Source: Reclinomonas americana ATCC 50394 | Taxonomy: Eukaryota | Assembly (NCBI GenBank): GCA_048213135.1 | Contig: PS015366.1 | Coordinates: 54,486-107,569 of the forward strand | Direction of reading: 5' to 3' | Length of the DNA stretch: 53,084 nt | In this document: positions 490-40,663 of the stretch, piece after piece | How the letters are laid out: each line of letters begins with the position of its first letter | Numbering within the stretch: the stretch's first letter is position 1 | The notes under the pieces: model-generated | What the model saw: only the letters and a program-made list of their open reading frames with translations | Database searches by the model: none | Told to the model about the DNA's origin: nothing | Made by a program: the position numbers and the translations under genes

Positions 490-1932
490 TCAAGCCGCCA
501 CGCCCGTGTTCTCCGCCATCGTGCAGTCATTCTCGCAGAACGACTGCGCCGCCGGGCAAAACGCCGTGCAGTTGGCATCGGTGGCGCACGACGCCATCGA
601 GCAGTACTCGTGCACATGCACGCACACCTTGCAGCCTGTGCGAAACAATGTGTAAGTGCCAATGAAAGGAGAGGAAAAAGGATGGCGCGTGCACGCAACG
701 ATCGCTGACAGTCTGCGACCAAAAGTCGATCTCCGCGGTCTCCACCGGTGGCGACGCCGGTGCCATTGCCGTGGCGTTGGCCACTCCAGTGCCAGCAGTC
801 GTGGTGGTAGCCGCCGGAGCTCCGACCTCTCGAATCTCCGCGGCCAGCTCGGCCGTCGTCACTGGCGGCACTGGTGTAGACACCGGCACCGGCATGGTCG
901 TCGCACACTCGGTGCTGCAGCGCACCGACACAATGTGCACGCACTCCAGATGATCACGCGCCGGCTCCATCATCGGCGGCGGTGGCGGTGGCGGCGGCAT
1001 GCCAAACTCGCCTCCACGGTGGTGGTGATTGTGGTGGTGGTGCTGGTGCTCCTCACGCGCCTCCTGCTGCTGGTGGTGGTGGTGATGCTGGCGACGATCG
1101 TGCGCATGGTGCGGGTGATGCTCACGCCACTGCGCCGGCATGGCGTTCGGGTGGAGACCCTTGGTGCACAGGTGCCAGTCGTGCTGCACACAGAGGTCGC
1201 ACGAGAAGTTGTCGGCCGCGTGGCAGGCCTCGTGCGGAGTCGGCAATCGGCGCAGCTGATCGTGATGGTGATGATGCTGATCATGATGATACTGACGATG
1301 CTCGTGACGGTGGTGAGGCGCAGAAGGAGGCGGCGGCACAGCCGGCATGCCCTGAGGCAGCGGAGGCATAGTCTTGGCGACGTGAGGCATGGTCTCCATC
1401 GCCGGCATTCCCTCCGGCAACGACGGCACAGTCTTGAAGACCTCCGGCAGTGTCGGCAGCGCCTTGGCCACCTCCGGCATGGTCTCCATCGCCGGCATGN
1501 NNNNNNNNNNNNNNNNNNNNNNNNNNNNNNNNNNNNNNNNNNNNNNNNNNNNNNNNNNNNNNNNNNNNNNNNNNNNNNNNNNNNNNNNNNNNNNNNNNNN
1601 NNNNNNNNNNNNNNNNNNNNNNNNNNNNNNNNNNNNNNNNNNNNNNNNNNNNNNNNNNNNNNNNNNNNNNNNNNNNNNNNNNNNNNNNNNNNNNNNNNNN
1701 NNNNNNNNNNNNNNNNNNNNNNNNNNNNNNNNNNNNNNNNNNNNNNNNNNNNNNNNNNNNNNNNNNNNNNNNNNNNNNNNNNNNNNNNNNNNNNNNNNNN
1801 NNNNNNNNNNNNNNNNNNNNNNNNNNNNNNNNNNNNNNNNNNNNNNNNNNNNNNNNNNNNNNNNNNNNNNNNNNNNNNNNNNNNNNNNNNNNNNNNNNNN
1901 NNNNNNNNNNNNNNNNNNNNNNNNNNNNNNNN

Positions 1933-1981
<49 letters not shown>

Positions 1982-2045
1982 CTCTCCTCTCTCCTCCTCC
2001 TCTCGTCGTCGTCGTCTCCTCCTCCCTCCCTCCCTCCCTCCCTCC

Positions 2046-2087
<42 letters not shown>

Positions 2088-2379
2088 CCTCTCTGTCTCT
2101 GTGAGGAGTGCACCGCGACGCATCTCTCTCTTCAAATCCCTCAGTCTCCCCTTGTCTCTTCCTTCCTCTCCTCTCTCTCTCTTCTCTCTGTGTGAGAGTC
2201 GCACCTTGCTCCTCCACCTCCTCCTGCTCCTCCACAGGCACCCGGAACACCTCAATCTTGCCCACAGGCTCCTCCTGTTCCTCCTCAGTCGCCTGCTCTG
2301 ACTGAGCCTCTTGTGCGCAGGCACATCCCACTGCCAGCAGTGCGAGGAGCACTAACAGCACAAGCAGTGAAGAACGCAT
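490..2379 (-). CDS. Secreted protein of unknown function: signal peptide, acidic segment, Pro/Met-rich ~10-aa repeats, poly-His tracts and Cys-rich domains (multi-exon, interrupted by a gap)
   Basis: Exon 1 MRSSLLVLLVLLALLAVGCACAQEAQ...EEQ ends at a G|GTGCGA donor. After the gap the frame reads MPAMETMPEVAKALPTLPEVFK...HHHH...SQTVSD. Intron 699-636 (GTTGCGT...CACAG) joins a last exon RCKVCVHVHEYCSMASCATDANCTAFCPAAQSFCENDCTMAENTGVAA* (stop 490-492). Linkage across the gap is inferred. Confidence 0.7.
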
Positions 2380-3075
2380 GGTGGTGATCTTCTCTCCACA
2401 AATCGCGATGAAAACTGTCGGTTACGTCACGCTGCGAGATGATATCCGCAAATTGGCGGCATTATCGTGGCTGCGGGAGGATTTTAGAATTTTTGAGGCT
2501 CATTCGTCGCGGAGCACATGTGCGAAGACCACATCTACAGCAACAAGAGACAGGGCATGGTTTTCGGTCTTGACTATGTAGTTTACCGTCCGGATCGATC
2601 GCGCGCGATATCCGCTGCGCGCGATGCTGGAGATCGACTGCGCATGCTGCCTGCGGGTTGCGCCGATTGCAAACCGGGAGTCAACAGCAGTCTTTGCGAT
2701 CGTACAGCCTTGTGCAGCTGCAGGTTTCCCAAAGAGACAGCGAGGAGAATGCAGCTGAATGCATTCATTTCGAATTCGCGATCGCAGGGCCCGGCGGTGC
2801 ACATATACATACTGTATCCGTCAGTCATCCCCGTCACCGGGAATCGACTCGATCAGCTCGTTGACCGGGCTGCCGTCCAAGCCAATTGCAATGCATGTGT
2901 TCTAGCAGCTTGATGGCGTCTGACACGAATTGCCAAAGAGGCGGTAGCTTCGCAGCCATCGCCCTTCCCATTCTTACGCCCCCCTCAGGCCCTTCTTTAT
3001 ACACTGTACACTATCGACACCAAACGTGCGTCTGCCGTCAACAAAGACTTCCACACTTGTCCCACACTTCCGCTC

Positions 3076-6000
3076 ATGCACTTACTCGGGCGAGCGCGCT
3101 CCCTCCTGCTGGGCCCGCTCACCTCCTCCTGCGCCTCCCTCCACCGCAGCATCTCCGACAGCGCCAAGGCCATTGTCCGTCGCGAGCGCGAGTGGCTCGA
3201 CCACGCCTCCCTCTTGCTCTCTCGCTGGCAAGTCGACGCACGCTGGCAGTCAGAGGTGCAAGCCAGTCGCGCCAAGGTCTGTACTGCTGCACATGCATCC
3301 CTCACATTCCGTCTTCTCACACATGCACACGCGCGCGCGAAAAAAAGCTCGACGAGTTATTCTTGATTGTTGTCTGTGGAGAAGTTGCGATGTTGTTGTT
3401 GTATGCAGCTCCAGCACTGCTTGCATGTCTCATCGCGTGCGCTCAGTGGAACAGTGGCAAGAGCTCACTGATCAACACGTTACTGCGTGGCGACTATGTC
3501 AAAGAGGGTTCGCTGCAGGTCACTGCTTTGCATACACGCGCGCATGATTCTCAGCTGCTCTGTGGTAACAGGTGTGCTTCCGACCACCGATGCACTGTTC
3601 TTGATTCGACATGGTGAGCGCGTGCAGCACTGGGAGGGCACTCCGGAGGTGGCCGGCAGTCGGGCTCCGATTCACCTGACTGTGCCGTCGCCGGCGCTGG
3701 TGGATATGGTGGTGGCCGACACGCCCGGCGTGAATTCGATTGTGAAGGGACACCAGGAGATCACTGAGCGAGTGATTCCGCGCTCCGACNNNNNNNNNNN
3801 NNNNNNNNNNNNNNNNNNNNNNNNNNNNNNNNNNNNNNNNNNNNNNNNNNNNNNNNNNNNNNNNNNNNNNNNNNNNNNNNNNNNNNNNNNNNNNNNNNNN
3901 NNNNNNNNNNNNNNNNNNNNNNNNNNNNNNNNNNNNNNNNNNNNNNNNNNNNNNNNNNNNNNNNNNNNNNNNNNNNNNNNNNNNNNNNNNNNNNNNNNNN
4001 NNNNNNNNNNNNNNNNNNNNNNNNNNNNNNNNNNNNNNNNNNNNNNNNNNNNNNNNNNNNNNNNNNNNNNNNNNNNNNNNNNNNNNNNNNNNNNNNNNNN
4101 NNNNNNNNNNNNNNNNNNNNNNNNNNNNNNNNNNNNNNNNNNNNNNNNNNNNNNNNNNNNNNNNNNNNNNNNNNNNNNNNNNNNNNNNNNNNNNNNNNNN
4201 NNNNNNNNNNNNNNNNNNNNNNNNNNNNNNNNNNNNNNNNNNNNNNNNNNNNNNNNNNNNNNNNNNNNNNNNNNNNNNNNNNNNNNNNNNNNNNNNNNNN
4301 NNNNNNNNNNNNNNNNNNNNNNNNNNNNNNNNNNNNNNNNNNNNNNNNNNNNNNNNNNNNNNNNNNNNNNNNNNNNNNNNNNNNNNNNNNNNNNNNNNNN
4401 NNNNNNNNNNNNNNNNNNNNNNNNNNNNNNNNNNNNNNNNNNNNNNNNNNNNNNNNNNNNNNNNNNNNNNNNNNNNNNNNNNNNNNNNNNNNNNNNNNNN
4501 NNNNNNNNNNNNNNNNNNNNNNNNNNNNNNNNNNNNNNNNNNNNNNNNNNNNNNNNNNNNNNNNNNNNNNNNNNNNNNNNNNNNNNNNNNNNNNNNNNNN
4601 NNNNNNNNNNNNNNNNNNNNNNNNNNNNNNNNNNNNNNNNNNNNNNNNNNNNNNNNNNNNNNNNNNNNNNNNNNNNNNNNNNNNNNNNNNNNNNNNNNNN
4701 NNNNNNNNNNNNNNTGTGGGGGATTGCTTTCGCCCCTTCTTTCCCTGTGCATGGTTCTTTCGAGCCGACTTCGTTCATCATTGCTCCTTTCGTGTCTGGG
4801 TGTTTGCATTCGCCTGATCTTTCCCTCTGCCTGGTTCCTTGAGTTCATCGTCGCCCGTATCCTGTCGGACGATTGCTCTCGCCCCTTCTTTCGCTGTGCA
4901 TGGTTCTTTCGAGCCGACTCCGTTCATCGTTGCTCCTTTTGTGTCTGGGTGTTTGCTGTCGCCCCTTCTTTCTCATAGCTTCGAGTCATTAAGCCTTTGG
5001 CGTTCCAGTAGTGTCTGGGTGTTTGCTTCGACTTTTTTCTTTCCCTCCGCTTGATTCCTTGAGTTCATCATTGCTCATTTCATACGGGTTTGCTTTCGCC
5101 CCTTCTTTCGCTCTGCTTGGTTTCTTTGAGCCTTCGACGTTCATCAGTGCTTCCTTTCACCCCTTCTTCCCTCTGCTTGATTCTTTGAGTTAACGTTCAT
5201 CGTCGCCCGGAATATTCGGAGGGTTGCTAGCCCCTTCTTTCCTCATACCGGGTTTGCTTTCGCCCCTTTCTTTCATCTCGCTTGGTTCCTTTGACTGCAT
5301 CAGCGCTCCATTCGTGTGCGGGGATTTGCTCCACCAGTTCTTTCCCCCTAATTGGTTCCTGTGAGCCAACTGTGTCCGTTTGTTGTCGGGTTTGCTGTCG
5401 CCCTTCATTCATCTCCCCTGTTCCCTTTGCCTGAACGATGCAGGCCCCGAGAGATCCACCCGCTTGCCCGTTATCGCCGACGAATTCCAACTCAACCGAT
5501 CTCATCTGCTCTCGGATGTGTCTTCGGCCACGCGGCACGTGGTGGCTGCCTTTGACAAGAACAACGAGATGCAGAATTTGAACGAGTGAGTGTGTGTGTT
5601 TCACGAGTGTGCTGGCTCCATCGTCTCACCCATATGTGGAACGATTCAGTACCATCCACAAGGCCATCATCTCCACCCTGGCGGTGGAGGTCGGCGCCAT
5701 TGGTCTCGGGGTCATGGCAGTGGTGTTGTCGGCATCGCTTTTCGATCCGTCGGGCATGGTTGCAGGTTTGCTGTCGTTGATGTTTACACGCAATCGCGGA
5801 TGAACGACGCTGACTCTTTCTCATCACCACGGGCATGTATTTGGCAGCTGGTGCCTTGGCTCTTGGCGGCCTCTACGTACTGCCGCACATGCGCAGTCGG
5901 CTAAAGGTTTGTATGTGTATTGATGTGATGCCTGTCGACACTGCCGAGTGTCCCCACCCACCTCTGTCCCCCACCCGTCTCATTCTCACTCTCTTTTCCC

Positions 6001-6277
6001 CTTTCATGTGTGTGCTCATCTGGCTGGCCAGGCCGACTTTGAGAACCGCTTGCTGGATGTGCGGGCAAAGCTGCGCACGACACTTCGCGAACAGTTCGAC
6101 TCGCAGCTGCAATTGTCGAGTGAGGAGATACGCAACGCGGTGTTGCCGTACACACGATTTGTGGAGAGTCGTCAGATGGCCGCCCGCTCCGACCAGGAGG
6201 AGTTTGTGGCGCTCCAGAAGGGTCTCGCTGGCCTGAAAGAGGACATTGAGAGGACTTTGCAAAGCACCTTGCAGTAA
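3076..6277 (+). CDS. FZL-like / bacterial dynamin-like GTPase with C-terminal hydrophobic hairpin (multi-exon, middle in a gap)
   Basis: Removing introns 3277-3347, 3384-3446 and ~3508-3571 gives LDELFLIVVCGE|WNSGKSSLINTLLRGDYVKEG|VLPTT and DTPGVNS (G1-G3 motifs of the FZL/DLP type). Exons 5443-6277 encode a TM pair EVGAIGLGVMAVVLSAS...AAGALALGGLYVLP and a coiled-coil end. Confidence 0.8.
4720..5300 (+). repeat. Degenerate intronic tandem repeat (core TTGCTTTCGCCCCTTCTTTC...TTCTTTCGAGCCGACT..GTTCATC; first two copies ~149 bp apart)
   Basis: Near-identical ~85-bp blocks at ~4724 and ~4873, with more degenerate copies to ~5300. Confidence 0.75.
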
Positions 6278-6345
6278 TGAAGGCAACTAGTGCGGGAAAT
6301 GAGGAGAGCCCGTGGGATGTGCGGAGAGAATATATTGCTGTCAAC

Positions 6346-7449
6346 TTACAAGTGCAGCTCAGGGTCTACGCGACATTGATGCATCACGACTTCAGCGTCC
6401 TCCACAATGAAGCATCGCAGTACCATCTCCGGCAGGCAGCGCGAATCCGCCACGTCCTCGTCTCCTGCATCTTGCATCTCCTGAACCGCGTGCATGGCCT
6501 CGAGCGCTTTGACGAGCTCGAGGCGAGCAAGACCACACGGAGTGCTCCACACACGCACAGTGTAGTCATAGCCGCCGCTCACTACTTGCTGCCCGTCGGG
6601 TGTGATGGCGACAGAGCACACTCCCAAAGAGTGTCCCTCCAGTCGTAGCACTTCCTTGTCACCTGCCAGTGACCACACTCGCACCGTACGGTCGTCACTC
6701 ACACTCACAATGTGCTGACAGTTGGGCGTGACGGCGACAGAAAACACGTAGTCACTGTGCCCCTCCAACCATCTCACGTTTTCTCCAGTCGGCATCGACG
6801 ACACACGCAGTATATCGTCAAACTCGCTTCCACAACTCACAATGTGCTGGCCGTCGGGGGTAATGGCGACGGAGTGCACCGAATCAGTGTGCCCCAGCAG
6901 TCGTCGCACCTCCTCGCCACTCGCCAGTGACCACATCCGCACCGTACGGTCCTCACTCCCACTCACAACATGCTGGCCATCGGGAGTGACGGCGACGGAG
7001 TATACCCATCCATTGTGACCCTTCAACAGTTGCGTCTCCCTGCCACTCGCCAGCGACCACACACGCACCGTCTGGTCAAGACTCCCACTCACAACGTGCT
7101 GACCGCTCGGAGTGATGGCAACAGAGGTCACGCATCCAGTGTGTCCATCAAACCGTCGCACTTCCTCGCCACTCGCCAGTGACCACACAAGTACCTGATT
7201 ATCACCACCTCCGCTCACTACATGCTGCCCGTCGGGTGTAATGGCGACAGAACGCGCTTCCGAAGAGTGTCCCTCCATCCGTCGCACCTCCTCTCCACTC
7301 ACGAGTGACCACACTCGCACTGTGCAGTCTCTGTTGCCACTCACAACATGCAGGCCATCGGGAGTGACGGCGACAGACATCACCATGGCAGTGTGTCCTC
7401 GCAGCACGTGCTTGCACAGGAAGAGAGGACGAAGGGCAGTAGCTGACAT
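6346..7449 (-). CDS. WD40 array gene A1 (7 WD40 repeats + conserved tail), intronless
   Basis: ATG of MSATALRPLF shared with A2/A3; seven GH...WS repeats; tail LPEMVLRCFIVEDAEVV. Confidence 0.9.
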   Translation of the reverse strand: MSATALRPLFLCKHVLRGHTAMVMSVAVTPDGLHVVSGNRDCTVRVWSLVSGEEVRRMEGHSSEARSVAITPDGQHVVSGGGDNQVLVWSLASGEEVRRFDGHTGCVTSVAITPSGQHVVSGSLDQTVRVWSLASGRETQLLKGHNGWVYSVAVTPDGQHVVSGSEDRTVRMWSLASGEEVRRLLGHTDSVHSVAITPDGQHIVSCGSEFDDILRVSSMPTGENVRWLEGHSDYVFSVAVTPNCQHIVSVSDDRTVRVWSLAGDKEVLRLEGHSLGVCSVAITPDGQQVVSGGYDYTVRVWSTPCGLARLELVKALEAMHAVQEMQDAGDEDVADSRCLPEMVLRCFIVEDAEVVMHQCRVDPELHL

Positions 7450-7649
7450 GCTTGTGAGGAGGAGAAGAAAATGAAGGGGTGTTCCTGTGCGCGTGAGTGA
7501 CCGGATGAGAGTGTGAGAGGATCGACGTCTCTGACAATATTCTTCGTTCGCGCTCTGCAGGTCCATGGAGGCATTTACTGCACCTCGGGGAGAGGGAGGT
7601 GGAAAGAGAGAGGGACATAAACAAGGGAGTACGAGCACAAGCAAGCGGG

Positions 7650-8738: not shown

Positions 8739-8932
8739 GATTGCAAGGAGGAAGGGAAAGGGAAGAGTGCGTGTGCGTGGGAGAGAGATGGGTCGAGATG
8801 GGGAATGTCCCACAGCGACTCGAAGTTGCAGATCAAAGAGGGCATTCATTCTTGCAGGCTCGTTCACAAACACCATTCATGCAGCACCTCGGGAGAGGGA
8901 GGCGGAAGGAGAATGGGACACAAATCTGTTGC

Positions 8933-11371: not shown

Positions 11372-11434
11372 GCGCGCACGCGTGAACAACTAACTGAGTG
11401 ATTGAATTTTTCCTCACTCTTTTAATATTCAACA

Positions 11435-13500
11435 ATGTGAGCCGCCACAACCCATCCTTCCCTCTCACTGACACTCACTGTCTCTCTCTCTCTCTCACAC
11501 ACAGGGGCGCAGGTCAATCTGTGAAGCTGGACGCACTGGCGAATGTCGACGACGTGAAGACCAAATGTGCGTGTTTTTTTGTGTTCCATTACTCAACTCA
11601 CACACACTTGCTCACTCACTCACACTCACACACAGTGGGCGAGGATGCTGTGGCGGAGATGCACTCCACCTTCACTGCGCTGGCCAGTCGTCGTGGAGAG
11701 CGTGAGACCATGTTGAGTGGAGAGGTTTTCCCGCGCTCTCTCTTTTGTGTCTTACTCTGTGTGTGTGGCAGCACTGAGGCCGGCTTCCTGTCCATGCTGG
11801 AGGAGATCCCGGCAATGGCCGCGGCCACCAAGGTGACTCTCAATAAGTCGCGCACTTGCTCACTTGTTTTTGTTTGCTGATATGGCACATATCATCAACC
11901 TTTCACAGGATATGCTCAAGGTCGGTGCTGCATCTTGTGTCGTTGTTGTTGTTGTCTTCTGCGAGTTCAATATGTGCGTTGTGCAGCTCATGTTCAATGC
12001 CATGGACCTGGACGGCGATGATATGTACATTGCGCTGTTTGTCTGTCTTTGTGTTGCTGTGAGTGCTGACTTGTGTGTTTTTTCGTGCACGAGTGTTGGA
12101 TTTCAATGGTACATGCGTGTCTGTGTATGCTCATGGTGTGCGGTGATGCTGATGGCTCACTGGCACGTCGTGGCAGAGTTCCTCACTGGCATGTACGTGG
12201 TGACGGCGCCGGAGGCCGGTCGCGAGAAGATGATGCTGATGTTCCGCAGTTGCGTGCGAGCTTGACGTGCCAAGTGTGTGTCGTGCGGCGGCAGCTGATG
12301 GTGGAGTGGCAGTCTTTGATGCCAACCGCGACGGCTTTGTGTCCAAGACCGAGGCCAAGAAGATCTTCAAGGTGGCCATCAACATGGCGCAGTCTGTCAT
12401 GGTGGCCATGATGCAGGGCATGGTGAGCAGTGGGCGCGGCGTGGCGTGGCGGGTGATGTGCTCTCCTGCCGCTCACACACTGCGATGCAGATGAGCATGT
12501 CGGCGGCGGAGGCCAAGCGCGCTGTCAAGGCCATGATGCCGGCGGTCGACGAAATCGTGGACTCCCTCTTTGCCAAGATGGTTCGTTTTGCCTTAGCGGG
12601 GTCTCGCCTTACCTTCTTATCTCTCTTTCTTCACTGCACGGGTTCCTTTTTGAAGGTCACCTTTTCTTTCTCTCCTTTCGACCTGCACTCCTGCTTGTGA
12701 GTGCGTTGGAGGCACATCCAAGCACAGCAGAGGCAGCTGCTCTCCCCTCTCCACCTTGTATTCTTTCTTTCCCTCGCTTGTGAGCGCTACAGAGACGATC
12801 ACACCACGCATGCTGAAGCGGCTGTTCTTCTCATTCTGTCGCTCTCTGTTGACCATGGACACCTCGTTTCGCTTCGCCTTTGTGCGCAACTGAGGCCATC
12901 GGATTTGCGCTTGTACATGCACATCTGAGCGTAGCAGAAGCATTTTTTCCTTCACAATCTTCCGCTCCTCTCTCCACCTTCCATGCTTTTCTTCCTCCCA
13001 CGTGTGAGCGCTGTTGAAGCGATACGATCCGCGCTGGTGCATCTGCGTTGGAGACCACATCTGAGCACTGCATACGCCTGCTGCTCTCCTCACCTTTCCT
13101 CGCTTGTGCGCGCAACTGAAGCTATCCGATCTGCGCTCGCACCGGCACATCTGAGCACAGCAGAAAAGGCGCCATTCTCACACCATTCACTCCTCGCGTC
13201 TCCTCGCTTGTCCGCAACTGATGCATCGCTTGTGCAGAGAGCACATCTGAGCACTGCAGAAGCGGTAGCTTTCCTCGTTCCTCCACTCCTTCTTTTCCAT
13301 TCACTCGTCACCTTTCCTCGCTTGAAGCAATCAGATACATTGCACATCTGACCTCTCCCTCTTCCCCTTCTCCTCTGCAGGACACCAACCAAGACGGCAA
13401 GATCTCCTTGGAGGAGTGGCTGAGCCAGCCCGAGTTCGAGGACGAGAAGGTCGTGTCGCTGTTGGGCTCTCTCGGACTCATGCAGTCGTCGTCGAGCTAA
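11435..13500 (+). CDS. N-myristoylated EF-hand calcium sensor (NCS/recoverin/calcineurin-B-like), 11 coding exons
   Basis: Exons 11435-36, 11505-566, 11636-711, 11772-832, 11909-920, 11987-12020, 12091-108, 12177-248, 12313-422, 12491-580, 13381-500 join in frame: MGAGQS...MDLDGDGVLDFNEF...FDANRDGFVSKTE...MDTNQDGKISLEEW. Confidence 0.85.
12700..13355 (+). repeat. Degenerate intronic tandem repeat (core GCACATCTGAGCAC(T/A)GCAGAAG), ~6 copies
   Basis: Core recurs at ~12712, 12919, 13056, 13145, 13241 and 13342. Confidence 0.7.
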
Positions 13501-13844: not shown

Positions 13845-13875
<31 letters not shown>

Positions 13876-14305: not shown

Positions 14306-14371
<66 letters not shown>

Positions 14372-17300
14372 TTTCTATCTCCCCAGTCTTCATTCTCTCT
14401 CATCACTTTCTAACTCTCCCCTCCTCCCTCACTCTCTCTCTCTCTCTCTTCACTTTTTCTCACTCTTCCCTTCTCTCTCTCTCCTTTGCACTCACACGCG
14501 AGCGGAGCGCAGAAACCAAGCGTGGTGTCGGGTCGGGAGGTGCGCGAGACGCAGGGTGTGAACGGAGAAACAGTGCAGATCATCCAGCCACTGGAGGAGG
14601 AGCAGCTGCGTGCGGATCTGCGACGAGTGCTGGAGAGCACGGAGATTCGAAGCTGTGCGGTGGTGCTGGCGCACGCGTATGCGTTCCCGCAGCACGAGAT
14701 TCGTTGCGGTGAGATTGCGCGCGAGGTCGGCTTCACACACGTGTCGTTGTCGCACGAGATTATGCAAATGGTGCGCCTGGTGCCGCGTGGGCAGACCACG
14801 GCGGTCGACGCCTACTTGACGCCGATTATCCACGAGTATCTGCGCGGCTTCCGACAAGGTTTCAAGAACGAACTGGCTGTTGCGTTGCGATGAGAGGAGA
14901 ACGGTGATGGTGATCAGGGGTATTCACTCTGTGCATGCAGGGCGTCAACGTGCTGTTCATGCAATCCGACGGTGGTCTCACATCGGCCAACGATTTCCGC
15001 GGCTGCCGCGCCATCTTCTCGGGGCCAGCTGGTGCGCTGCGAGTTGGTTGTTTTGGTCGAGCTGCTTTGTCGATGAACCCGCTCAACTGTGTATGTGTGC
15101 AGGCGGTGTCGTGGGCTACGCGCTGTCGAGCTACAATGCCGAGTCGCAACAGGCGGTGATTGGTTTCGACATGGGTGGCACGTCGACGGATGTGTCGCGC
15201 TACCATGGCACATTCGAGCACGTCTTCGAAGTAGAGACGGCTGGCGTGACTCTGCAGACGCCTCAGTTGGATGTGCAGACAGTGGCGGCCGGAGGTGGCT
15301 CCAAATTGCACGTTCTCGAAGGTGGCATGCTGGCTGCGGGACCCGACAGCGTCGGTGTGTGTTGTATCCGTTCGGTTTCTCCTCTACTCTACCGGGTCTC
15401 ACTCACCCCCCGGCAATATGAAGGCGCACATCCGGGACCAGTGTGTTACCGCAAGGGTGGCGAGTTGGCCGTGACCGACGCCAACATTGTGCTCGGTCGC
15501 ATCGTCCCTGAGTATTTCCCAGCCATTTTCGGCCCGCACAAAAACGAACCGCTGGACGCGGCAGGCGCTCGTCGTGCCTTTGAGGAGCTCCTGGATCGCG
15601 TGCGTCACTTGCTACCGTCGTCGATTCACACGGTGGAGGAGCTGGCGTCTGGTGTGCATGATTGTAGGGCGAGAGCACTCTTTGTTTCCTTTGTTTGTTA
15701 TTTGGCTCTCGCGTGCTGAGTTCGGGTCAGCATTTTTGGGCGTTGACGTTCCTTGCTCTTTCTCTTTCTATTTCATATGAGGCTCTATCTCTATCTGTCT
15801 GTGTCTCCTTTTTCCATTCTTGTACTTCTTCGTCGTGCTTCTTGTCCTCCTCTTCTTCCGCTGCTCACACTCCTCCTCCTCTTCCAACTTCTTCTGCGTC
15901 CCCTTTTTGTTCTGCTTCTTCTCCTCCTCCTCTTCTTCCTCCACCTCCTCCTCCACCACCACCACCACCACCTCCTCCTCCTTCTTCCTCCTCCTTCTGT
16001 TCCTTCTTTGCTCTCTTTCTTCTTCTTCATCATGTTCTTCTCCTCTTTCTCCTCCTCCTCCTTCCTCCTCCACCTCCTCCTCCTTCTCCTTCCTCCTTCC
16101 ACCTCCCCTTTCTTCTTCTCTTTTCCTTCCTTCTCCTCCACTTCCTTCTCCCCACTCACCTCACCGGCAGGATTCGTGCGCGTGGCCAACGAGACCATGG
16201 CGCGTCCGATCCGCAACATGACGGTGGCCAAGGGCTACGATGTCGTTACGTGTAATTTTTATGACGTTGCACACTGCCTAGCATTGCTCACGGTGTCCGT
16301 GTATGCAGCGCGAACATGTCTTGTCGTGCTTTGGTGGAGCTGGCGGGCAGCACGCGTGTTCCATTGCCCGTGATCTGGGCATTCGAAAGGTGTTTGTGCA
16401 CCGCTACGCCGGCATTCTGAGTTGCGTCACGTTGGCAATGTGCAATCGCCGGAATGCCTCTCACTCTGCGAGAGTAGGTGCGTACGGCATGGCCTTGGCC
16501 GACATTGTAGAGGACGTGCAAGAGACGTGTCCGTGTGTCTACTCGGAGGCGTCGTTGCGCGACACGCTGGAGCCGAAACTCAGCGAGCTCCGTGAGCGAG
16601 CCGTGAGCGCGCTGGTCGCCAAGGGTCACGTGCGCGACTCGATTCGCACCGAGGTCTGGCCTCCGCATTTCTTCGTCGACTGTCCGCTCATCTCTCACTC
16701 TCATTTCGCATCGCAGGAGTACATCCACTTGCGATACCGCGGCACCGATCATGGCATCATGACGGCGCGTCCCGCTGTCGGCGTAACCTATGAGGAGGCG
16801 TTTGTGGAGAGCTACCGCAAGGAGTTTGGGTTTGTGCTGCCCACTCGCGACATCCTGGTCGACGATTGCCGCGTGCGTGCCATGGCCAACTCGAGTGGTT
16901 TCTCACTCTCCAGTTGCGTTGTGCCTTTTCTTGTCAGTCAGTCAGTCAATCACGTGCAGGCGTTATTGAAGCGGCTGGTGGATGCAGGTGGCCAAGACGT
17001 ACACACTCCGTTCCTGCCGGAGACCACCGTACCCGAGGGCGAGGCAGTCAAGCGGGTCTCGGTTGAGCCGCGTTCGGTGACCAGCTCCTTCTTCCCGAGC
17101 ACTGGGCGGTACGTCTGAGCGTACACACACGAGAGACCAGGTTGTTTCCTTGCGGTCACCACTGCTTTGCTGCAGAGTTGAGATCCCCGTGTATGTGCTC
17201 GATGCCATGATTGCGTCGCGCTCTGCGGCCGGTGACGCGTCGTCGTCGTTGGTGCGCGTGGAGGGCCCATGCATTGTCATGATGGATACGTGGTGCGTGC

Positions 17301-20196
17301 GTGGGATGGACGTCGTTGATGCATAGAACATGGACTCTCCTCATTCGCACACAGCACTGTTGTGGTGGAGCCGCGATGCACTGCCTCGCTCACTGTGGCT
17401 GGCAACTTGCAACTGGATCTGGATTACGAAGGCGCCGAAAGCGGTGCTCATCACGCCTCTGCGCATTCTGCAGTCGCTGATGATGTGTGCGACCCGAGTT
17501 GCGAATTCCCTCCTTGTTTCGCAAATCTGTAGTCACTGTGGTGCCTCATGCTCGTTGTGTGTCTATGTGCAGTTCTGCTTTCCATCTTCTCCCATCGCTT
17601 CATGGGCATTGCGGAGCAAATGGGCCGAACGCTAGAGCGCACTTCCATCTCCACCAACATTCGTGAGCGTCTCGATTTCAGCTGCGCGATTTTTGACGTT
17701 GCGTCTCACTCTCACTCTCGAGCATCAGTTCGTCGTGCTGAAGTGCATCATTCGTGCAGCCTGCCGGTGGACTGGTGGCCAATGGTTTGTGTGCTTTACA
17801 CAACTGTCGAGTCATTCCATGTTCCTCACAACGCACTGTACAGCTCCCAACCTTCCTGTACACCTCGGCAGCATGAGCGAAGCGGTGCGATGGCAGATCA
17901 AGCATCTCGGTTCGCTTCTGTTTCCCAAGTCGGCACAGAAGGACTGCTTGACTGACCGCGCTCCGCAGGCGACAGTTGGACCGATGAAGTCATCCTCACA
18001 AATCATCCGTGGGCCGGTGGCTCGCACTTGCCCGACTTGACGGTGATCACTCCGGTAAGCTCTGCTCCACGCAATACTTAGCCAGTAGAGCAACGTGTTG
18101 CCGCTCACATCTCTCTCTCTCCCTCTCCCGCCCTGCGTGAGTACAGGTGCGCTCCAACGGCAGTGTGGTGTTTTATGTGGCTGCGCGAGGCCACCACGCC
18201 GACATTGGCGGCATTCAACCGGGCTCGATGCCGCCGTTCTCGCAGACGCTTGCCGAGGTTTGTTGGTCACTTCCAGGTGCTTTGCGCCGTGTTCTCATTC
18301 TGCCTGCGCAGGAGGGACTGGCGGTCGAAAGCGTGATGCTAGTCAAGGACGGCGTCTTCCAGGAGGAGACCATTGTCGGGCTGGTAAGCAGTCGGCAGGA
18401 GGTGCCCACCTGTATGGTTTGCCGCTCACGGGCGGCTCTGCACAGTTGCGCGAGGCTGGTTCGCGAACCATTCCCGACAACCTCAGCGACTTGCATGCCC
18501 AGGCGGCGGCCAACAACAAGGTGCAGTGGCACAACTGCGAGAGTCTGTCCCCGTCCGCCAAGCTCACCTGATGTTTTCGTCACCGCCACACGCGTAGGGC
18601 ATCCAATTGCTGCAGCAGCTGATTGAGGAGTACTCGTTGCGACGCGTCCATCGCTACATGCACTTTGGTGAGTGAGCGAGTGAGTGAGTGGGCGTCTATC
18701 GACAGCGTCCTAACACAGTTCCTCATCGCAGTGCAACGAAATGCGGAGCTGTGTGTGCGAGCCATGTTGAAGCGGTTGGCTGAGCGGCACGGCAAGCCGG
18801 TGCAGGATCCATCGGGCGCCGTTTCGTCACATTCTCGTCATTTTCGCGGTAGGGGAAATTCTTCCTCATCTCGTGGTGTGCAGGTGTCCACTGTGGCAGA
18901 GCTGGCGGCCACCGACTCAATGGATGATGGCACAGTGGTGCGTTTGCCTTTCCGCAAGGGCGTGATGTGTGCAGAATGCTGACTTGTGTGTTGTTTGCAG
19001 ATTTGCATCTCCATCAAGGTCGACAAGAACGACGGCAGTGCCGTGGTGGATTTCAGTGGATGCGGTCCGCAGGTTCTCGGCAACACCAACTCACCTCGCG
19101 CCGTGTGCGTCTCAGCTCTCCTCTACTGTCTTCGCTGTCTGATCGAGCAGGACATTCCACTGAACGAAGGTGAGGCTGGCAGTTGGTGGGACTGGCGATG
19201 TTGATGCGCTGATTGCATAATGTGCAGGATGTTTGATCCCGGTGCGCATCATCTTCCCCTCGTACGCCTCGATTGTGGCCCCGTCCAAGACGGCGGCCGT
19301 CGTCGGCGGCAATGTGCTCACTTCGCAGCGTGTGACGGACGTGATCTTGGTTGCGTTGCGCTGCATATGCCTCTGTCTGGTGCACGCCGCGCGTCTCACA
19401 CCACGTGTAGCACGCCTTCCAAGCCTGCGGTGCCTCGCAGGGTTGCATGAACAACTTCACCTTTGGCAACGAGCGGTTCGGCTACTACGAGACCATTGCT
19501 GGCGGAGCAGGTGCCGGGCCCACGTGGGACGGCTGCTCGGGTGTGCAGGTGCACATGACCAACACGCGCATCACCGACGTGGAGATTATGGAACGGCGAT
19601 ACCCGGTGCTGCTTCGCCAGTTTGCTTTGCGCCGAGGATCGGGTGGCACCGGACTCCACCACGGTGGAAATGGAGTGATTCGGTGCGTGACGGGTGAATG
19701 CTGTCCATTCTTTTTGCTGTGCATTGTTGACATGCTTTGTGCGCAATGCATAGCGAGGTCGAGTTCCTCGAGGTGCGCCACTTTTGACACTTCTGCTCCT
19801 GTGACTTGCGGAGACTTATTTTGTTTTGTAGCCGCTTCAAATGGGCATTCTCTCCGAGCGCCGTGCTCTCGGTGTGTGTCTGTCGAACCCCGCACCGCGC
19901 ACCGCGCATTGCTGCGATGATATTTCTCATCTCTTCTTTCCCGTGTGGTAGCTCCCTATGGGCTGGCCGGTGGCGGTCCCGGCGAGCGCGGACTGAACCT
20001 GCTCCTCCGGCAAGAGGACGGCGTCACGATCAACATTGGCGGCAAGGCCTCGCTCCGTGTGCACCCAGTTACGCGCGCCGCACGTATAGTTGCATGCAGA
20101 TTCGTGCTCGCAACCATGCATGACTCTTTTTTGTTGCAGGGCGATCGAGTGCGCATTCACACTCCAGGTGGCGGTGGCTACGGTGTTCCCTTGTAG
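13596..20196 (+). CDS. OPLAH: 5-oxoprolinase (ATP-hydrolysing; fused hydantoinase A/B), ~29 exons, one gap
   Basis: Motifs [90 protein letters not shown] and TPGGGGYG appear in order after removing 60-80 nt introns. Confidence 0.95.
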
Positions 20197-31106: not shown

Positions 31107-33541
31107 ATGAGTGGCACCTCGAAACTTGACTATCTCAAGCGATACACCAGTGGCGGCTCTGAGCCCACAGGCAGCAGCGACTACATTGAAAAGAAGAAGA
31201 AAAAGAAGAAGAAGACAGCGACAACAACAGCAGCAAAGGCATGAAAAATGCATCTCTTTCTCTCACTTCTCTCTCTTTTTACTCATGTGTGCATGTGTGT
31301 GTGTGTGTTTAGACTGCCAACTTGGTGATTCACGATGAGGACTGGTCGTGGAATGTGGCCAGAAAGAAGGCTGCAGAGGAAGAGATCGAGGCTGAGTTGG
31401 ATGAAGGTTGGTGCATTCTTCTCTCTCTATTGCTCTCTCTCTCTCTCNNNNNNNNNNNNNNNNNNNNNNNNNNNNNNNNNNNNNNNNNNNNNNNNNNNNN
31501 NNNNNNNNNNNNNNNNNNNNNNNNNNNNNNNNNNNNNNNNNNNNNNNNNNNNNNNNNNNNNNNNNNNNNNNNNNNNNNNNNNNNNNNNNNNNNNNNNNNN
31601 NNNNNNNNNNNNNNNNNNNNNNNNNNNNNNNNNNNNNNNNNNNNNNNNNNNNNNNNNNNNNNNNNNNNNNNNNNNNNNNNNNNNNNNNNNNNNNNNNNNN
31701 NNNNNNNNNNNNNNNNNNNNNNNNNNNNNNNNNNNNNNNNNNNNNNNNNNNNNNNNNNCTCTCTTCTCCCTCCCTTCTCCCTCCCTTCTCCCACCCTTCT
31801 CCATCTCCTTCTCCTCCCCTTCTCCCTCCCTTCACCCTTCCTTCTCCCACTCCTCCTCCTCCCCCCGCAGACGAGAGACCAGTGGTAGTGAACGCGGATG
31901 AGTTCGGGTTGGACCAGAAGCTGCGACCGCGACGCCGAGACGCGGGCGAGGACGACGAATCGCGAGAGTGGCATCGTCCGCGCGCGCCAATCATTGAGGA
32001 TGGCAGTGGGTGGCAGGATGTGTCGGGAGTTGCGCCTGCATCCCTCTGCCCTCTTGCTTCTGTTATCATTGCGTCTCATTTGCCTGTGGCACGCGTAGTC
32101 GAAGGCCAGTCCCATGGATGAGGTGCGCGACGGCCGTCACTCACCGTCTGTCTTGCTGCTATTTCACGCCCTTCACAGGATGAATCATCGCCTCCACGTC
32201 GACGGCCGCGTCACGATTCACCGGATGTTGCGTTGTCTGGTTGGTCGTTCCTCCTCGTCGCCTGTGTTGCTCATCTCGCCTCGTCGCAGGCCTCGGTCGC
32301 CGACCAGTCGCCACCGCGCAGGCGACCGCGACACGACTCGCCCGATCCCACAGCCGCCGCAGACTTGTCGCCACCGCGGCGGCGAGTGCGTCACGATTCG
32401 CCTGATGTTGCGCTTTCTCGTCCGTCCCCTCCCTCCTCCCTCTTCGTCACTCACTCCGTTGGCATGTCACAGGAGAGCACTGGCGCGGCTGGTGATTTGT
32501 CTCCACCACGTCGGCGGCCTCGACACGACTCACCCGATCCGTCTGCCGACCTGTCACCTCCTCGCCGCTCCGCTCCTGCGTCCGCATCGGCGCGGTCGGG
32601 TGACGGAAGCGGTGACTTGTCGCCGCCGAGGCGGAAGGCGGTGGTGGATGGCGATGGAGGTGTGTTGATTGGTCTCCTCCTCTCTTTTCCTCTCTGCCCT
32701 TCGCCAACCATTCGCCGCACAGACCTGTCGCCACCGCGCAAGCGTGCGCGTGTGGACGCAGATGGCGACTTGTCACCGCCACAACGCCGACAAGGCCCGT
32801 CGTCGTCATCGTCGTCGTCTTCGGGCGCTGCATCTTCGCGCCGCCCCGTGGAAGCTGCGGTCATCAAGCAATCGGAGGACATGCGGGGCTTGCGCACCGC
32901 CGAGCAAATCAAAGCCGATGGCGAGAGGAGGCGTCAGGCTGAGCGGGATCGCTTGGCGAAGGTCGACGCGTCAGCCAGTGGACAGGGCGCGGACACGGTC
33001 TATCGCGATCGACATGGTGCGGCGCGCCACCTTCCATTTTCTATCATCATTTGTGTGGCCCACTGAAAGAAAACCACCGCTCGCAGGTCGTCGCATGGAA
33101 ATGTACGAAGCCATGCTCAAGCAGCAGCAGGGCGAAAAGGCGACGAGCGACGACGCGCACTTGGAGTGGGGTGGCGGTCTGAAGCAGAAGCAGGATAAGG
33201 AGGACGTGCAGTCGGCCATTCGCGCCGAGATGAGTCGTCCGTTTGCGCGCTACGCCGACGACGCCGAATTGGACACCCACCTACGCAGTCAGCAGCGCTT
33301 CGACGACCCCATGGCGCGCTTCTCCAGCTCCGCCGCCGGCGACAGCAAATCGAAAGCCAAGGACAAGAAGCCGCGCTATCGCGGTCCGCCGCCGCCGCCC
33401 AACCGCTTCAATATCCCGCCAGGCCACCGCTGGGATGGCATCGACCGCAGTAACGGATTCGAGAAGCGGTACTTTGAGATCATCAACCAGCGCAAGGCCA
33501 TTGGCGATATCATGTACGCCTTTAACAGCGAGGACATGTGA
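31107..33541 (+). CDS. BUD13: BUD13/CWC26 pre-mRNA retention and splicing (RES) complex protein, multi-exon
   Basis: N-terminal LDYLKRY and poly-K, LVIHDED, repeated RHDSPD/DLSPPRR motifs, TVYRDRHGRR, and C-terminal FDDPM...YRGPPPPPNRFNIPPGHRWDGIDRSNGFEKRYF...SEDM. Confidence 0.92.
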
Positions 33542-36600: not shown

Positions 36601-37330
36601 CCTGTCTTTTTCTCTCTTTTTCTCTGTCTCTCTCTCTCTCTCTCTCTCTNNNNNNNNNNNNNNNNNNNNNNNNNNNNNNNNNNNNNNNNNNNNNNNNNNN
36701 NNNNNNNNNNNNNNNNNNNNNNNNNNNNNNNNNNNNNNNNNNNNNNNNNNNNNNNNNNNNNNNNNNNNNNNNNNNNNNNNNNNNNNNNNNNNNNNNNNNN
36801 NNNNNNNNNNNNNNNNNNNNNNNNNNNNNNNNNNNNNNNNNNNNNNNNNNNNNNNNNNNNNNNNNNNNNNNNNNNNNNNNNNNNNNNNNNNNNNNNNNNN
36901 NNNNNNNNNNNNNNNNNNNNNNNNNNNNNNNNNNNNNNNNNNNNNNNNNNNNNNNNNNNNNNNNNNNNNNNNNNNNNNNNNNNNNNNNNNNNNNNNNNNN
37001 NNNNNNNNNNNNNNNNNNNNNNNNNNNNNNNNNNNNNNNNNNNNNNNNNNNNNNNNNNNNNNNNNNNNNNNNNNNNNNNNNNNNNNNNNNNNNNNNNNNN
37101 NNNNNNNNNNNNNNNNNNNNNNNNNNNNNNNNNNNNNNNNNNNNNNNNNNNNNNNNNNNNNNNNNNNNNNNNNNNNNNNNNNNNNNNNNNNNNNNNNNNN
37201 NNNNNNNNNNNNNNNNNNNNNNNNNNNNNNNNNNNNNNNNNNNNNNNNNNNNNNNNNNNNNNNNNNNNNNNNNNNNNNNNNNNNNNNNNNNNNNNNNNNN
37301 NNNNNNNNNNNNNNNNNNNNNNNNNNNNNN

Positions 37331-37364
<34 letters not shown>

Positions 37365-37871
37365 CTCTCTCTACTACTCTTCTTCTCTCTCTTCTTCTCT
37401 CTCTCCTCCTCTCTCTCTCTCTCTCTCTCTCTGCAACTCACTTGTCCTGAGCTCTTTCTGAATCTCTCTGCTCCTCCCCCCCTTCCTTCCCTCGCTCTCT
37501 CGCTGACATCACTTTTCCTCAACCTCCTTCTGCACCTCTGTCCCCTCCCCTTCTCTCAATCCCCACGCACCTTATGCAACGCCTCGCGCAACACCTGTCC
37601 ATCGGTGATCACTCGCCCACCAAAGATGAACTTCATCTCCTCCGGCAGTGGCGCCTTGTCGGCATTCTGCGCGCGCACTCGCTCCTTCACCTCGCGCACA
37701 GTGTCGTCCGCAGTGGCCTCCACCACGAACTCAGTTCTGCAAGGAGAAGAGAAGGAGAGGGTGAGAGAGGGAAGGAGGGGAAGGAGAGGGTGAGGGAGAA
37801 GGAGGAGGAAGAGGGTGAGGGAGAAGTGGGAGAGAGAAAGAGAGTGAGTGAGTGAGTGAGTGAGTGAGTGA

Positions 37872-37914
<43 letters not shown>

Positions 37915-38491
37915 TGTGAGAGTGAGTGAGTGTGTGTGTGAGTGAGCGAGTGAGTGAGTGAGTGAGTGAGTGAGGAGTGAGTGAGTGAGTGAGTGAGTGA
38001 GTGTGTGTGTGAGTGAGCGAGTGAGTGAGTGAGTGAGTGAGTGAGGAGTGAGTGAGTGAGTGAGTGAGTGAGTGAGTGAGTGAGTGAGGGAGTGAGTGAG
38101 TGAANNNNNNNNNNNNNNNNNNNNNNNNNNNNNNNNNNNNNNNNNNNNNNNNNNNNNNNNNNNNNNNNNNNNNNNNNNNNNNNNNNNNNNNNNNNNNNNN
38201 NNNNNNNNNNNNNNNNNNNNNNNNNNNNNNNNNNNNNNNNNNNNNNNNNNNNNNNNNNNNNNNNNNNNNNNNNNNNNNNNNNNNNNNNNNNNGAGTGAGC
38301 GAGTGATTGAGTGAGTGTGAGTCTGAGTGAGTGATTGAGAGAGACAGAATGACTGAGAGAGACACAGTGAGTGAGTGAGTGAGTGAGTGAATGAGTGAGT
38401 GCGCATGTGAGAGAGACACACTCACACACACTCACACACACAATGAGAGTGTGCACAGTGTGATGACGCGTGTCACTGGTGCGAATGACAT
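33659..38491 (-). CDS. HERP-like protein: N-terminal ubiquitin-like domain, Gln/Tyr/Met-rich linker, C-terminal TM segments (multi-exon, gaps)
   Basis: Putative exon 1 MSFAPVTRVITLCTLS; UBL exon TEFVVEATADDTVREVKERV...MKFIFGGRVITDGQVL; SIDDEVIVIHVV; AYMQQYMQWYMQQ; LIKLGLLIFVFGQDG...FVASLLP. The start codon is less certain. Confidence 0.75.
35640..35970. repeat. Degenerate intronic tandem repeat (AGCATGCGAAGAACGCGCGCAGAAG...GGCACACGACAGAAACCACAGGAACAA), ~3 copies
   Basis: Core recurs at ~35660, 35785 and 35893. Confidence 0.7.
37843..38400. repeat. (GTGA)n/(GT)n microsatellite with internal gap
   Basis: Direct reading of the sequence. Confidence 0.9.
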
Positions 38492-38558
38492 GTGTGACGA
38501 AATCAGTCACCACTGACACACAAACACACACACACACACACAACACTCAACTTGTTCG

Positions 38559-38850
38559 CCAAGCGCACAGTCAACCGCATTCCTCGCTCACACAACAACG
38601 CAAAGAGAGAAAGGATCGATCAGAGAAAGGGTCGCAGGACAACTCTGAAGTTGATTTTTCTTTTTGTGCAATTACGTGAGAGGAGTGCGCGCATTCGTGG
38701 CAAGCTCTCCCAAGCGCACAGTCAACCGCATTCCTCGCTCACACAACGAAGAGAGACAGACAAGAGAAAAAGAGTCACAGGACAACTCTGAAGTTGATTT
38801 TCTTTCTTTGCAATGAGTGAGAGGAGTGCGCGCATTCGCGACAAGCTCTC
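38559..38850 (+). repeat. Direct tandem duplication (~150 + ~141 bp) covering the NUBP2 upstream region and first codons
   Basis: CCAAGCGCACAGTCAACCGCATTCCTCGCTCACACAAC...GGACAACTCTGAAGTTGATTT...GTGAGAGGAGTGCGCGCATTCG..CAAGCTCTC occurs twice. Confidence 0.9.
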
Positions 38851-40663
38851 TCGCGTGCGACAACACACAGTGTTGGTGTTGAGTGGAAAGGGTGGAGTAG
38901 GCAAGAGCACAATTACTGCGCAGTTGGCGGTGGCCTTGGCTGCTGCAGAGCATAATGTTGCGCCTGAGAGAGAGAGAGAGAANNNNNNNNNNNNNNNNNN
39001 NNNNNNNNNNNNNNNNNNNNNNNNNNNNNNNNNNNNNNNNNNNNNNNNNNNNNNNNNNNNNNNNNNNNNNNNNNNNNNNNNNNNNNNNNNNNNNNNNNNN
39101 NNNNNNNNNNNNNNNNNNNNNNNNNNNNNNNNNNNNNNNNNNNNNNNNNNNNNNNNNNNNNNNNNNNNNNNNNNNNNNNNNNNNNNNNNNNNNNNNNNNN
39201 NNNNNNNNNNNNNNNNNNNNNNNNNNNNNNNNNNNNNNNNNNNNNNNNNNNNNNNNNNNNNNNNNNNNNNNNNNNNNNNNNNNNNNNNNNNNNNNNNNNN
39301 NNNNNNNNNNNNNNNNNNNNNNNNNNNNNNNNNNNNNNNNNNNNNNNNNNNNNNNNNNNNNNNNNNNNNNNNNNNNNNNNNNNNNNNNNNNNNNNNNNNN
39401 NNNNNNNNNNNNNNNNNNNNNNNNNNNNNNNNNNNNNNNNNNNNNNNNNNNNNNNNNNNNNNNNNNNNNNNNNNNNNNNNNNNNNNNNNNNNNNNNNNNN
39501 NNNNNNNNNNNNNNNNNNNNNNNNNNNNNNNNNNNNNNNNNNNNNNNNNNNNNNNNNNNNNNNNNNNNNNNNNNNNNNNNNNNNNNNNNNNNNNNNNNNN
39601 NNNNNNNNNNNNNNNNNNNNNNNNNNNNNNNNNNNNNNNNNNNNNNNNNNNNNNNNNNNNNNNNNNNNNNNNNNNNNNNNNNNNNNNNNNNNNNNNNTAC
39701 GCACTGCACTCTCTCTCTCCTCCTCCCTCCTCCCTCCTCTCCTCCTCTCTCTCTCTCCTCCTCTCTCTCTCCCTCCCTCTCTCTCTCTCTCACACACACA
39801 CATACATCCGCAGTCCTTGTGCAACAAGAGAATCAGAAGTGGAAACCTCGCAGAAGAGACAAGTCGGAGACCGTCGGAGATTGATTGCTGTCTCACCCTT
39901 GGTGCTGCTTGCAGGTCGGAGTTCTCGACATTGATGTGTGCGGCCCGTCCATCCCAAAGATCCTCGGTCTCGAGGGCCACTCGGTGCATCAGTGCTCCGA
40001 TGGGTGCGCGTTGCTTCTTCTGTTGTCTTGCCTTTCCTCTGCGTCTGATGTCGCGACAGGTGGGTGCCTGTGTATGCCGACGCCAGCAAGCGCTTGCGCG
40101 TGATGAGCATTGGCTTTCTGCTGGCGAGTCCCGACGATGCGGTGGTGTGGCGTGGTCCGCGCAAGACCGCCATGATTCGTCAGTTTATTGAGGATGTGCA
40201 CTGGGGCGACGATGTCGACTATCTGCTGGTGGACACGCCGCCGGGCACCTCTGACGAGCACATCACAATTGTGGAGATGCTGCAGGAGGTGCCGAACGCC
40301 GGTGCGGTGATTGTGACCACGCCGCAGGGTGTGTCGCTCAGCGACGTGCGCAAGGAGATCACGTTCTGTCGGCGCGTGGAGTTGCCGGTGCTTGGCCTGG
40401 TGGAGAACATGAGTGGATTTGTGTGCCCGCACTGCGCCGAGTGCACCGACATTTTCATGAGTGGTGGCGGTCGGGAGCTGGCCACCGCCTGCAGCATCCC
40501 GCTGCTTGGACAGGTGCCCATTGACCCGCAACTGGCGGCTGCCGAGGACGCCGGCGAGGATTTTATCAGCAACTTTCCCGATACGCCAACAGGCAGGGCA
40601 CTGGCGGCCGTGGTGAGTGCCCTCGAGCGGGAGGTGGAGGAGAGAAGGATAACGCCAAAGTAA
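38813..40663 (+). CDS. NUBP2: Cytosolic Fe-S cluster assembly factor NUBP2/Cfd1 (Mrp/MinD P-loop ATPase)
   Basis: [30 protein letters not shown]...[34 protein letters not shown]. It lacks the N-terminal 4-Cys extension of Nbp35/NUBP1. Confidence 0.92.

Follow-up and report, generated by a model that had tools for sequence, protein, structure and literature searches.

A frequent class of GTTGCG and GTTACG donors that matches the ordinary 5' splice signal after a one-base shift

Results

Genes of the window and the donor class

The window analysed here is a 53,084-base stretch of DNA with ten N runs and a G+C content of about 58% outside them. It is nuclear DNA from an intron-rich eukaryote. 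Our subject is a class of its 5' splice sites (donors) in which the intron begins with GTT[GA]CG. The genes outside three WD40 arrays were listed from the open reading frames (ORFs) and from homology. In order along the window, they are a His-rich gene without homologues (about 291-1400, minus strand), a dynamin-like GTPase gene (about 2300-6300, plus strand), an EF-hand gene (about 11400-13500, plus strand), a 5-oxoprolinase gene (13597-20193, plus strand), a BUD13/CWC26-like gene (about 31760-33541, plus strand), a gene with a ubiquitin-like domain (about 33659-38100, minus strand), and exon 1 of a NUBP/Mrp-like P-loop ATPase gene (38798, plus strand). The closest database relatives are 56% identical for the oxoprolinase and 61% identical for the WD40 and GTPase proteins. 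A metagenome scan with one oxoprolinase exon as the query returned 18 loci that were 60-79% identical over part of the exon, none of them close.

The initial annotation of the window had named 16 donors of this class. All 16 motif strings were present, the one at 699 on the minus strand. Eight of the donors were placed exactly by homology, and six more are plausible from the architecture of their introns. Of the remaining two, the site at 38957 runs into an N gap and the site at 18821 found no support.

Placement of donors by homology

Donors were placed with a purpose-written spliced protein-to-DNA aligner, which treats every GT or GC as a potential donor and every AG as a potential acceptor, charges a flat cost and contains no motif model. 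The references were 16 full-length 5-oxoprolinases and 14 GTPases. As a check of each boundary, all GT/GC/AT..AG/AC pairs at most 36 nucleotides (nt) from it were enumerated and scored, together with read-through. In the oxoprolinase gene, 22 introns were recovered identically with at least 14 of the 16 references each, and their donors are called robust below. The GTPase gene contributed one class donor (3384) and ordinary donors at 3508, placed with 14/14 references, and at 5586, 5766 and 5907, placed with 5/14 each; the remaining references at these three ended earlier in the alignment or took other boundaries. Pooling the two genes gave a homology-placed set of 27 donors, 8 of the class and 19 ordinary. 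The ambiguous introns 17910/17920 and 18800/18821 were excluded from the donor counts. The composition of the class was taken from 15 sites, which are the 16 sites of the initial annotation minus 18821. All of these counts come from six genes in one 53-kb window, and the placement is from sequence alone. An ab initio chaining of exons, blind to donor motifs and with a coding potential learned from the WD40 ORFs, was dropped because only 5 of the 22 known oxoprolinase introns came out exactly.

The oxoprolinase gene is extremely dense in introns. Its part from 14516 to 20193 (plus strand) holds at least 24 introns within about 5.7 kb, and in the aligned part there is about one intron per 45 codons. 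Nearly all of these introns are 54-92 nt long, and one is 519 nt.

Eight class introns placed exactly

Seven of the eight class introns placed by homology lie on the plus strand in the 5-oxoprolinase gene, and each ranked first of 14-56 enumerated alternatives. The intron at 14879..14940 (gct|GTTGCGTT...CAG, 62 nt, phase 0) was placed with 15/16 references and was the top of 15 alternatives (2352 vs 2243); its length is not a multiple of three. The other six were placed with 16/16 references. These are 16245..16308 (gtc|GTTACGTG...CAG, 64 nt, phase 0), the top of 35 alternatives (2900 vs 2734); 16421..16477 (tga|GTTGCGTC...TAG, 57 nt, phase 1), the top of 56 alternatives including read-through (2333 vs 2157); 17498..17572 (cga|GTTGCGAA...CAG, 75 nt, phase 1), the top of 14 alternatives, with a stop codon on read-through; 17698..17759 (gac|GTTGCGTC...CAG, 62 nt, phase 0), also the top of 14 alternatives (2156 vs 1990); 19350..19410 (ttg|GTTGCGTT...TAG, 61 nt, phase 0), the top of 32 alternatives; and 20068..20139 (cca|GTTACGCG...CAG, 72 nt, phase 0), the top of 50 alternatives (1571 vs 1406). 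The lead of the 19350 intron was small (2695 vs 2676), only against a GC..AC pair. This intron is also the sole class member with G at -1.

The eighth intron, at 3384..3446 (plus strand; gaa|GTTGCGAT...CAG, 63 nt, phase 0), lies in the dynamin-like GTPase gene and was placed with 10/14 references, among them the closest one (61% identical). Its join rebuilds the P-loop GEWNSGKS, giving LDELFLIVVCGE|WNSGKSSLIN, compared with LDELFWLVVVGE|FNSGKSSLIN in reference P0242. The other 4/14 references took gat|GTTGTT, 8 nt downstream, which is likewise a non-canonical donor of the GTT type, with T at -1.

Frequency of the class and its dependence on the -1 base

Eight of the 27 homology-placed donors read GTT[GA]CG, which points to roughly three in ten introns of this very intron-rich eukaryote starting with GTTGCG or GTTACG. 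The sense strand of the oxoprolinase gene contains 437 GT dinucleotides, 14 of which begin GTT[GA]CG. The hexamer was found at 7/22 robust donors vs 7/415 other GT (odds ratio 27, p=8e-7).

The class is tied to the last base of the exon. In the homology-placed set, G occupied -1 at 1/8 class donors vs 18/19 other donors (Fisher p=7e-5), which bears out the link to a missing -1 G drawn in the initial annotation. The one ordinary donor without G at -1, 5586 (cga|GTGAGTGT), is complementary to the standard U1 without mismatch from +1 to +8.

The donors at 17785, 18258, 5766, 5907 and 3508 (plus strand) have the form G|GTTTG[TC] or G|GTTCGC. The normal register tolerates T at +3 when both -1 and +5 are G, and therefore GTT alone does not define the shifted class.

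Cut position and ordinary features of the class introns

Homology fixes the messenger RNA (mRNA) and not the cut position itself. We considered a cut one base downstream, which would restore a G at -1 and turn the introns into TT..GN introns. This slide changes the junction codon in 5/8 placed introns and leaves the mRNA identical in the other 3. It scored lower in 5/5 introns where the mRNA would differ, and it was rejected.

In five of the eight placed introns, splicing is needed for an intact frame. The lengths of four (61, 62, 62 and 64 nt) are not divisible by three, and the fifth, 17498, has a stop on read-through; therefore these five cannot be retained insertions. The placed class introns are 57-75 nt long vs a median of 64 for the others (p=0.26). 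All eight are GT..CAG or GT..TAG introns, and a CTNAY-like motif stands 16-28 nt ahead of the acceptor in 6/8. In these features the eight are ordinary U2-type introns, and we take the class to consist of genuine GT-AG spliceosomal introns.

Two other origins were tried and rejected. U12-type introns carry the donor [AG]TATCCT and the branch site TCCTT[AG]A, and 0/8 placed class introns had a U12 donor or a U12 branch motif. Introner or transposon-derived copies were sought by an all-against-all blastn-short comparison of the 27 introns, which gave a single 18-nt match and no family common to them. One oxoprolinase acceptor, at 15412-15423 (plus strand; ATATGAAG|), has A at -3 in place of the usual pyrimidine and was taken by 16/16 references.

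The class motif matches the ordinary motif after a one-base shift

We compared the composition of the class (n=15) with that of the ordinary donors (n=19). The ordinary donors have G18 at -1; G12 T5 A1 C1 at +3; T8 C7 A4 at +4; G18 at +5; and T10 C6 G3 at +6. The class has T15 at +3; G13 A2 at +4; C14 A1 at +5; G15 at +6; and T9 C4 A2 at +7. Class positions +4, +6 and +7 correspond to ordinary positions +3, +5 and +6, with G at +6 in 15/15 class members vs G at +5 in 18/19 ordinary donors. This agrees with the initial description of the class as the usual consensus plus an extra T, with the +5 G moved to +6. When shifted by one base, the class equals the ordinary motif G|GT[GA]YG[TC] everywhere but at the ordinary +1 G, which is replaced by U.

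The equivalence extends into the exon. The class -1 base (A6 T5 C3 G1) resembles the ordinary -2 base (A7 T6 C4 G2). Expected numbers for -1 and -2 were taken from the codon-position composition of the gene's own exons. At class -1, A/T was found in 11/15 vs 4.7 expected (P=9e-4) and G in 1 vs 5.3 expected (P=0.013). At ordinary -2, A/T was found in 13/19 vs 7.3 expected (P=0.007) and G in 2 vs 5.9 expected. Since the class -1 base is A/T-rich and G-poor against the codon expectation, as the ordinary -2 base is, it is not merely unconstrained; it has the preference of a -2 base.

Some oxoprolinase donors (plus strand) have further peculiarities. The donor motif stands in tandem at the start of three introns, as GTTGCGTTGCG twice and as GTGCGTGCGT once (14879-14889, 19350-19360 and 17293-17302). 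Another form is G|GTGCAG, with A at +5, G at +6 and the -1 G kept, which occurs in the robust intron 18521-18597 and in the candidate 18800-18883. The standard U1 is predicted to pair with this form with C+4 bulged, a second kind of one-base offset.

Class sites recognised by architecture

Five further sites, 699 (minus strand), 11712, 12249, 32227 and 32407, share an acceptor 60-66 nt downstream, a CTNAY-like motif ahead of the acceptor and an in-phase join. The probable intron of the His-rich gene (636..699, minus strand; atc|GTTGCGTG...CACAG, 64 nt), recognised by its architecture, has a CTTAC branch-like motif, a CAG acceptor and open frames on either side. Two probable introns lie in the EF-hand gene (plus strand), and each is supported by architecture and by its join. 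The intron at 11712..11771 (cat|GTTGAGTG...GGCAG, 60 nt) joins ERET-I-TEAGFLSMLEE in phase; its donor is the sole class member with A at +5. The intron at 12249..12312 (gca|GTTGCGTG...GGCAG, 64 nt, phase 1) joins MMLMFR-I-FDANRDGFVSKTE (MFR-I-FDANRDG), which is a regular EF-hand entry helix and loop, and the upstream reading frame, continued beyond the donor, meets a stop after 17 nt.

The BUD13/CWC26-like gene (plus strand) has an N-terminal run of DLSPPRRRPRHDSPD repeats (32100-32800). The probable intron at 32227..32289 (gat|GTTGCGTT...CGCAG, 63 nt) lies between RHDSPD repeats and joins RHDSPD|ASVADQSPPRRRPRHDSPD; the excised piece is hydrophobic and is flanked by charged repeats. The probable intron at 32407..32472 (gat|GTTGCGCT...CACAG, 66 nt) joins RHDSPD|ESTGAAGDLSPPRRR. 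A possible intron starts at 32029 (gga|GTTGCGCC) and is either 150 nt long (32029..32178) or 70 nt long, ending at 32098. It too has a CTNAY-like branch motif; both acceptor choices join in phase, and a competing donor, gat|GTGTCG, stands 9 nt upstream. Three of the four introns inferred in this gene are of the shifted class, and the fourth (32660-32722) has an ordinary donor, gag|GTGTGT.

The candidate donor aat|GTTGCGCC (38957..38982, plus strand) follows exon 1 of the NUBP/Mrp-like P-loop ATPase gene. The motif is present where the recognisable GKGGVGKST exon ends; an N gap begins 26 nt downstream, and the acceptor falls outside the window.

The site at 18821 (gcc|GTTTCGTC), in the ambiguous intron 18800..18901 (plus strand), found no support as a class donor because it was not preferred over ccg|GTGCAGGA at 18800-18883. 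It scored 743 vs 760 for the latter, whose donor ccg|GTGCAG looks canonical, and vs 756 for another choice. Six of the 16 references chose 18800, six chose 18821 and four took other donors.

Two more observations concern the oxoprolinase gene (plus strand). At 16913, A|GTTGCGTT occurs in an unalignable linker. A GATGCAG acceptor follows 75 nt further on, and the join is in phase; this is possibly a ninth class intron of the gene. The first intron (13740-13907) starts near 13746, either at ctt|GTTCTC or at agc|GTGCTT 6 nt upstream. Both candidates lack G at -1 and at +5, and the acceptor falls inside an N gap.

WD40 arrays and N gaps

Three head-to-tail arrays of closely similar 7-bladed WD40 genes lie at 6346-11389 (minus strand), 20380-31400 (plus strand) and 39698-53084 (minus strand). 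The array unit is about 1.2-1.4 kb. The plus-strand copies seem to start at an acceptor (..VVAG|ASH..). Microsatellites of the type (CT)n/(GA)n flank most N gaps (for example 1440-1500, 13850-13907, 14306-14370 and 38970-38982), which suggests that the assembly breaks at these repeats.

Discussion

Given the position-by-position match of the two motifs and a -1 base that behaves as a -2 base, we lean towards the explanation that the class donor is the organism's normal 5' splice signal moved one base into the intron, with the ordinary U1 pairing in a +1 register. The same two results support the initial proposal that a shifted register is used routinely here. What we observed directly are the positions of the eight introns, the frequency of the class, its link to the -1 base and its match to the ordinary motif after a one-base shift. 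The role of U1 as the partner, its standard type and the way in which U6 copes with the extra base are inferences.

Under such a shift, the normal signal, exon-G | GU R Y G U, would become H | GUU R C G U. The G that normally ends the exon would open the intron, with U in place of the normal +1 G. G+1 would face the U1 C that normally meets G-1. U+3, R+4, G+6 and U+7 would occupy the slots of +2, +3, +5 and +6, leaving U+2 as the single mismatch. The later spliceosome would cut at the sole GU, one base upstream of the point implied by the U1 register. Because G+1 would fill the slot of the -1 G, the true -1 base would act as a normal -2 base, A/U-rich and G-poor, and the dependence on -1 seen in the initial annotation would follow from this.

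Several observations weigh against a shifted register of a standard U1. The duplexes predicted for the class with the standard U1 are weak, at -3.8 to +0.7 kcal/mol vs -3.6 to -10.1 kcal/mol for ordinary donors, and no more than 5/15 class sites have the +1 register as their predicted optimum; both predictions use the standard U1 5' end, from which that of this organism may differ. C stands at +5 in 8/8 placed class donors (14/15 overall) vs 7/19 at ordinary +4 (p=0.003), although for the standard U1 an A at class +5 would make a better partner than C. T may be absent from class +5 since GTTGT would make a second GT, and the near-absence of A is only marginally explained. Unused exonic copies of the hexamer exist at 14703, 16554 and 18636, and therefore the motif alone does not define a donor. 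Finally, 7 of the 15 retained sites rest on architecture and reading frame and not on homology, and all come from one 53-kb window with six genes.

The extra U could instead be bulged. U1, and later U6, would then pair normally at G+1 and U+2, one U (+2/+3) would bulge out, and pairing would resume at R+4, G+6 and U+7. Tan et al. 2016 (PMC4856993) summarise such a register for human 5' splice sites, with the bulge at +3 (or +2). The G|GTGCAG donors of the oxoprolinase gene, predicted to pair with a one-base bulge at +4 and with G+6 paired to C4, make an offset downstream of GU seem tolerated, and U6 must in any case accommodate one additional base between GU and the paired G. With a bulge, G at -1 would add a G-C pair and should be favoured or neutral; instead, it is depleted in the class, to 1/15 vs the 5.3 expected, and the class -1 base copies the ordinary -2 composition while ordinary donors have G at -1 in 18/19. 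We consider a bulged U rather unlikely on these grounds. A dedicated or altered small nuclear RNA (snRNA), an idea raised in the initial annotation, would account for other features. Either an additional U1 or a U1 or U6 with an altered recognition sequence would be directly complementary to GUUGCGU/GUUACGU, which would make the class a separate and fully paired signal. The narrowness of the class fits this, with T-[GA]-C-G in 14/15 and the excess of C at +5, as does its weak pairing with the standard U1 5' end in every register; the -1 base is also unconstrained for G, which is to be expected if pairing begins at +1. The window gives this no direct support, since a search of it with Rfam had 0 matches at the gathering score and found no snRNA gene within it. 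The ordinary donors (GTGAGT, GTAAGC, GTGTGT, GTTTGT) fit the standard U1 5' end, and therefore no variant snRNA need be assumed. A single U1 in a shifted register predicts the enrichment of A and T at -1, and a separate snRNA would not need it. We regard a dedicated snRNA as improbable.

We judge equally doubtful a combined scheme, a donor code with two registers chosen by the base that precedes GU. G|GU sites would be read normally and H|GUU[GA]CG sites in the +1 register, the latter served by its own RNA (a U1 variant, or a U1 or U6 with a changed recognition sequence that pairs to the invariant C-G), so that two major-spliceosome 5' splice-site specificities would work in parallel. The least likely explanation, to which we give very little credence, is that there is no special class and that either the boundaries were set wrongly or the segments, inserted in frame, are never spliced out. 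The introns at 3384, 16421, 20068, 11712, 32029, 32227 and 32407 are indeed multiples of three without a stop, so that their retention keeps the frame, and the site at 18821 from the initial annotation fell away. Against this, four placed class introns break the frame and a fifth has a stop, the spliced forms outscored read-through and all alternatives with the 16 references, retention at 3384 would split the P-loop, and the hexamer shows a 27-fold enrichment at donors relative to other GT.

If between one in four and one in three introns of this organism use one shifted motif, it would offer a natural system with a high sample number in which the cut site is uncoupled from the U1 register. 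Such a system would show how U6 manages with one more base between GU and its paired G, and what roles the -1 and -2 exon bases play. If the snRNAs are altered, it would be a rare case of changed specificity of the major spliceosome. There is a practical side too. Gene finders with a single donor model would miss or misplace about 30% of the introns in this genome if the share holds genome-wide, and since there are many short introns per gene (at least 24 in one gene of 1,250 codons), most gene models would be corrupted.

For a few sites in human cells, experiments have described U1 binding in the shifted register (Roca and Krainer 2009, summarised by Tan et al. 2016, PMC4856993). The human shifted-register sites in that summary resemble the class described here. 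They are cut at GU, their consensus lies one position deeper with the +5 G at +6, and a U follows the GU; all of their U1 base pairs are displaced by one position, as we propose for the class. The human +2/+3 bulge register (Roca et al. 2012, summarised in the same article) is likewise similar in its additional U after GU and its downstream consensus displaced by one base. It keeps -1 paired to C9 of U1, whereas the class avoids G at -1. The non-canonical U1 registers of human cells are rare exceptions that call for gene-by-gene proof with suppressor U1s. In PMC4856993 all the validated ones together are estimated at 1.5% of 201,541 sites and the +2/+3 bulge group at a few dozen sites, whereas the class accounts for 8/27 homology-placed donors here. 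The forms also differ in that the class reads GUU[GA]CG with C at +5, while the human shifted form is A-rich. In addition, the class is accompanied by a near-obligatory -1 G in all other donors, unlike the human shifted-register case. A full-text literature search, with subscription journals mostly outside it, found no report of an organism in which a shifted-register or GTTGCG class forms a substantial share of the donors.

U12-type introns offer another comparison. Like the class, they are a minority with a rigid donor motif of their own; unlike them, the class has the acceptors and branch-like motifs of the major class. The principle of the shifted register is already known; its abundance here, with so sharp a GTT[GA]CG motif and so clean a partition by the -1 base, is not.

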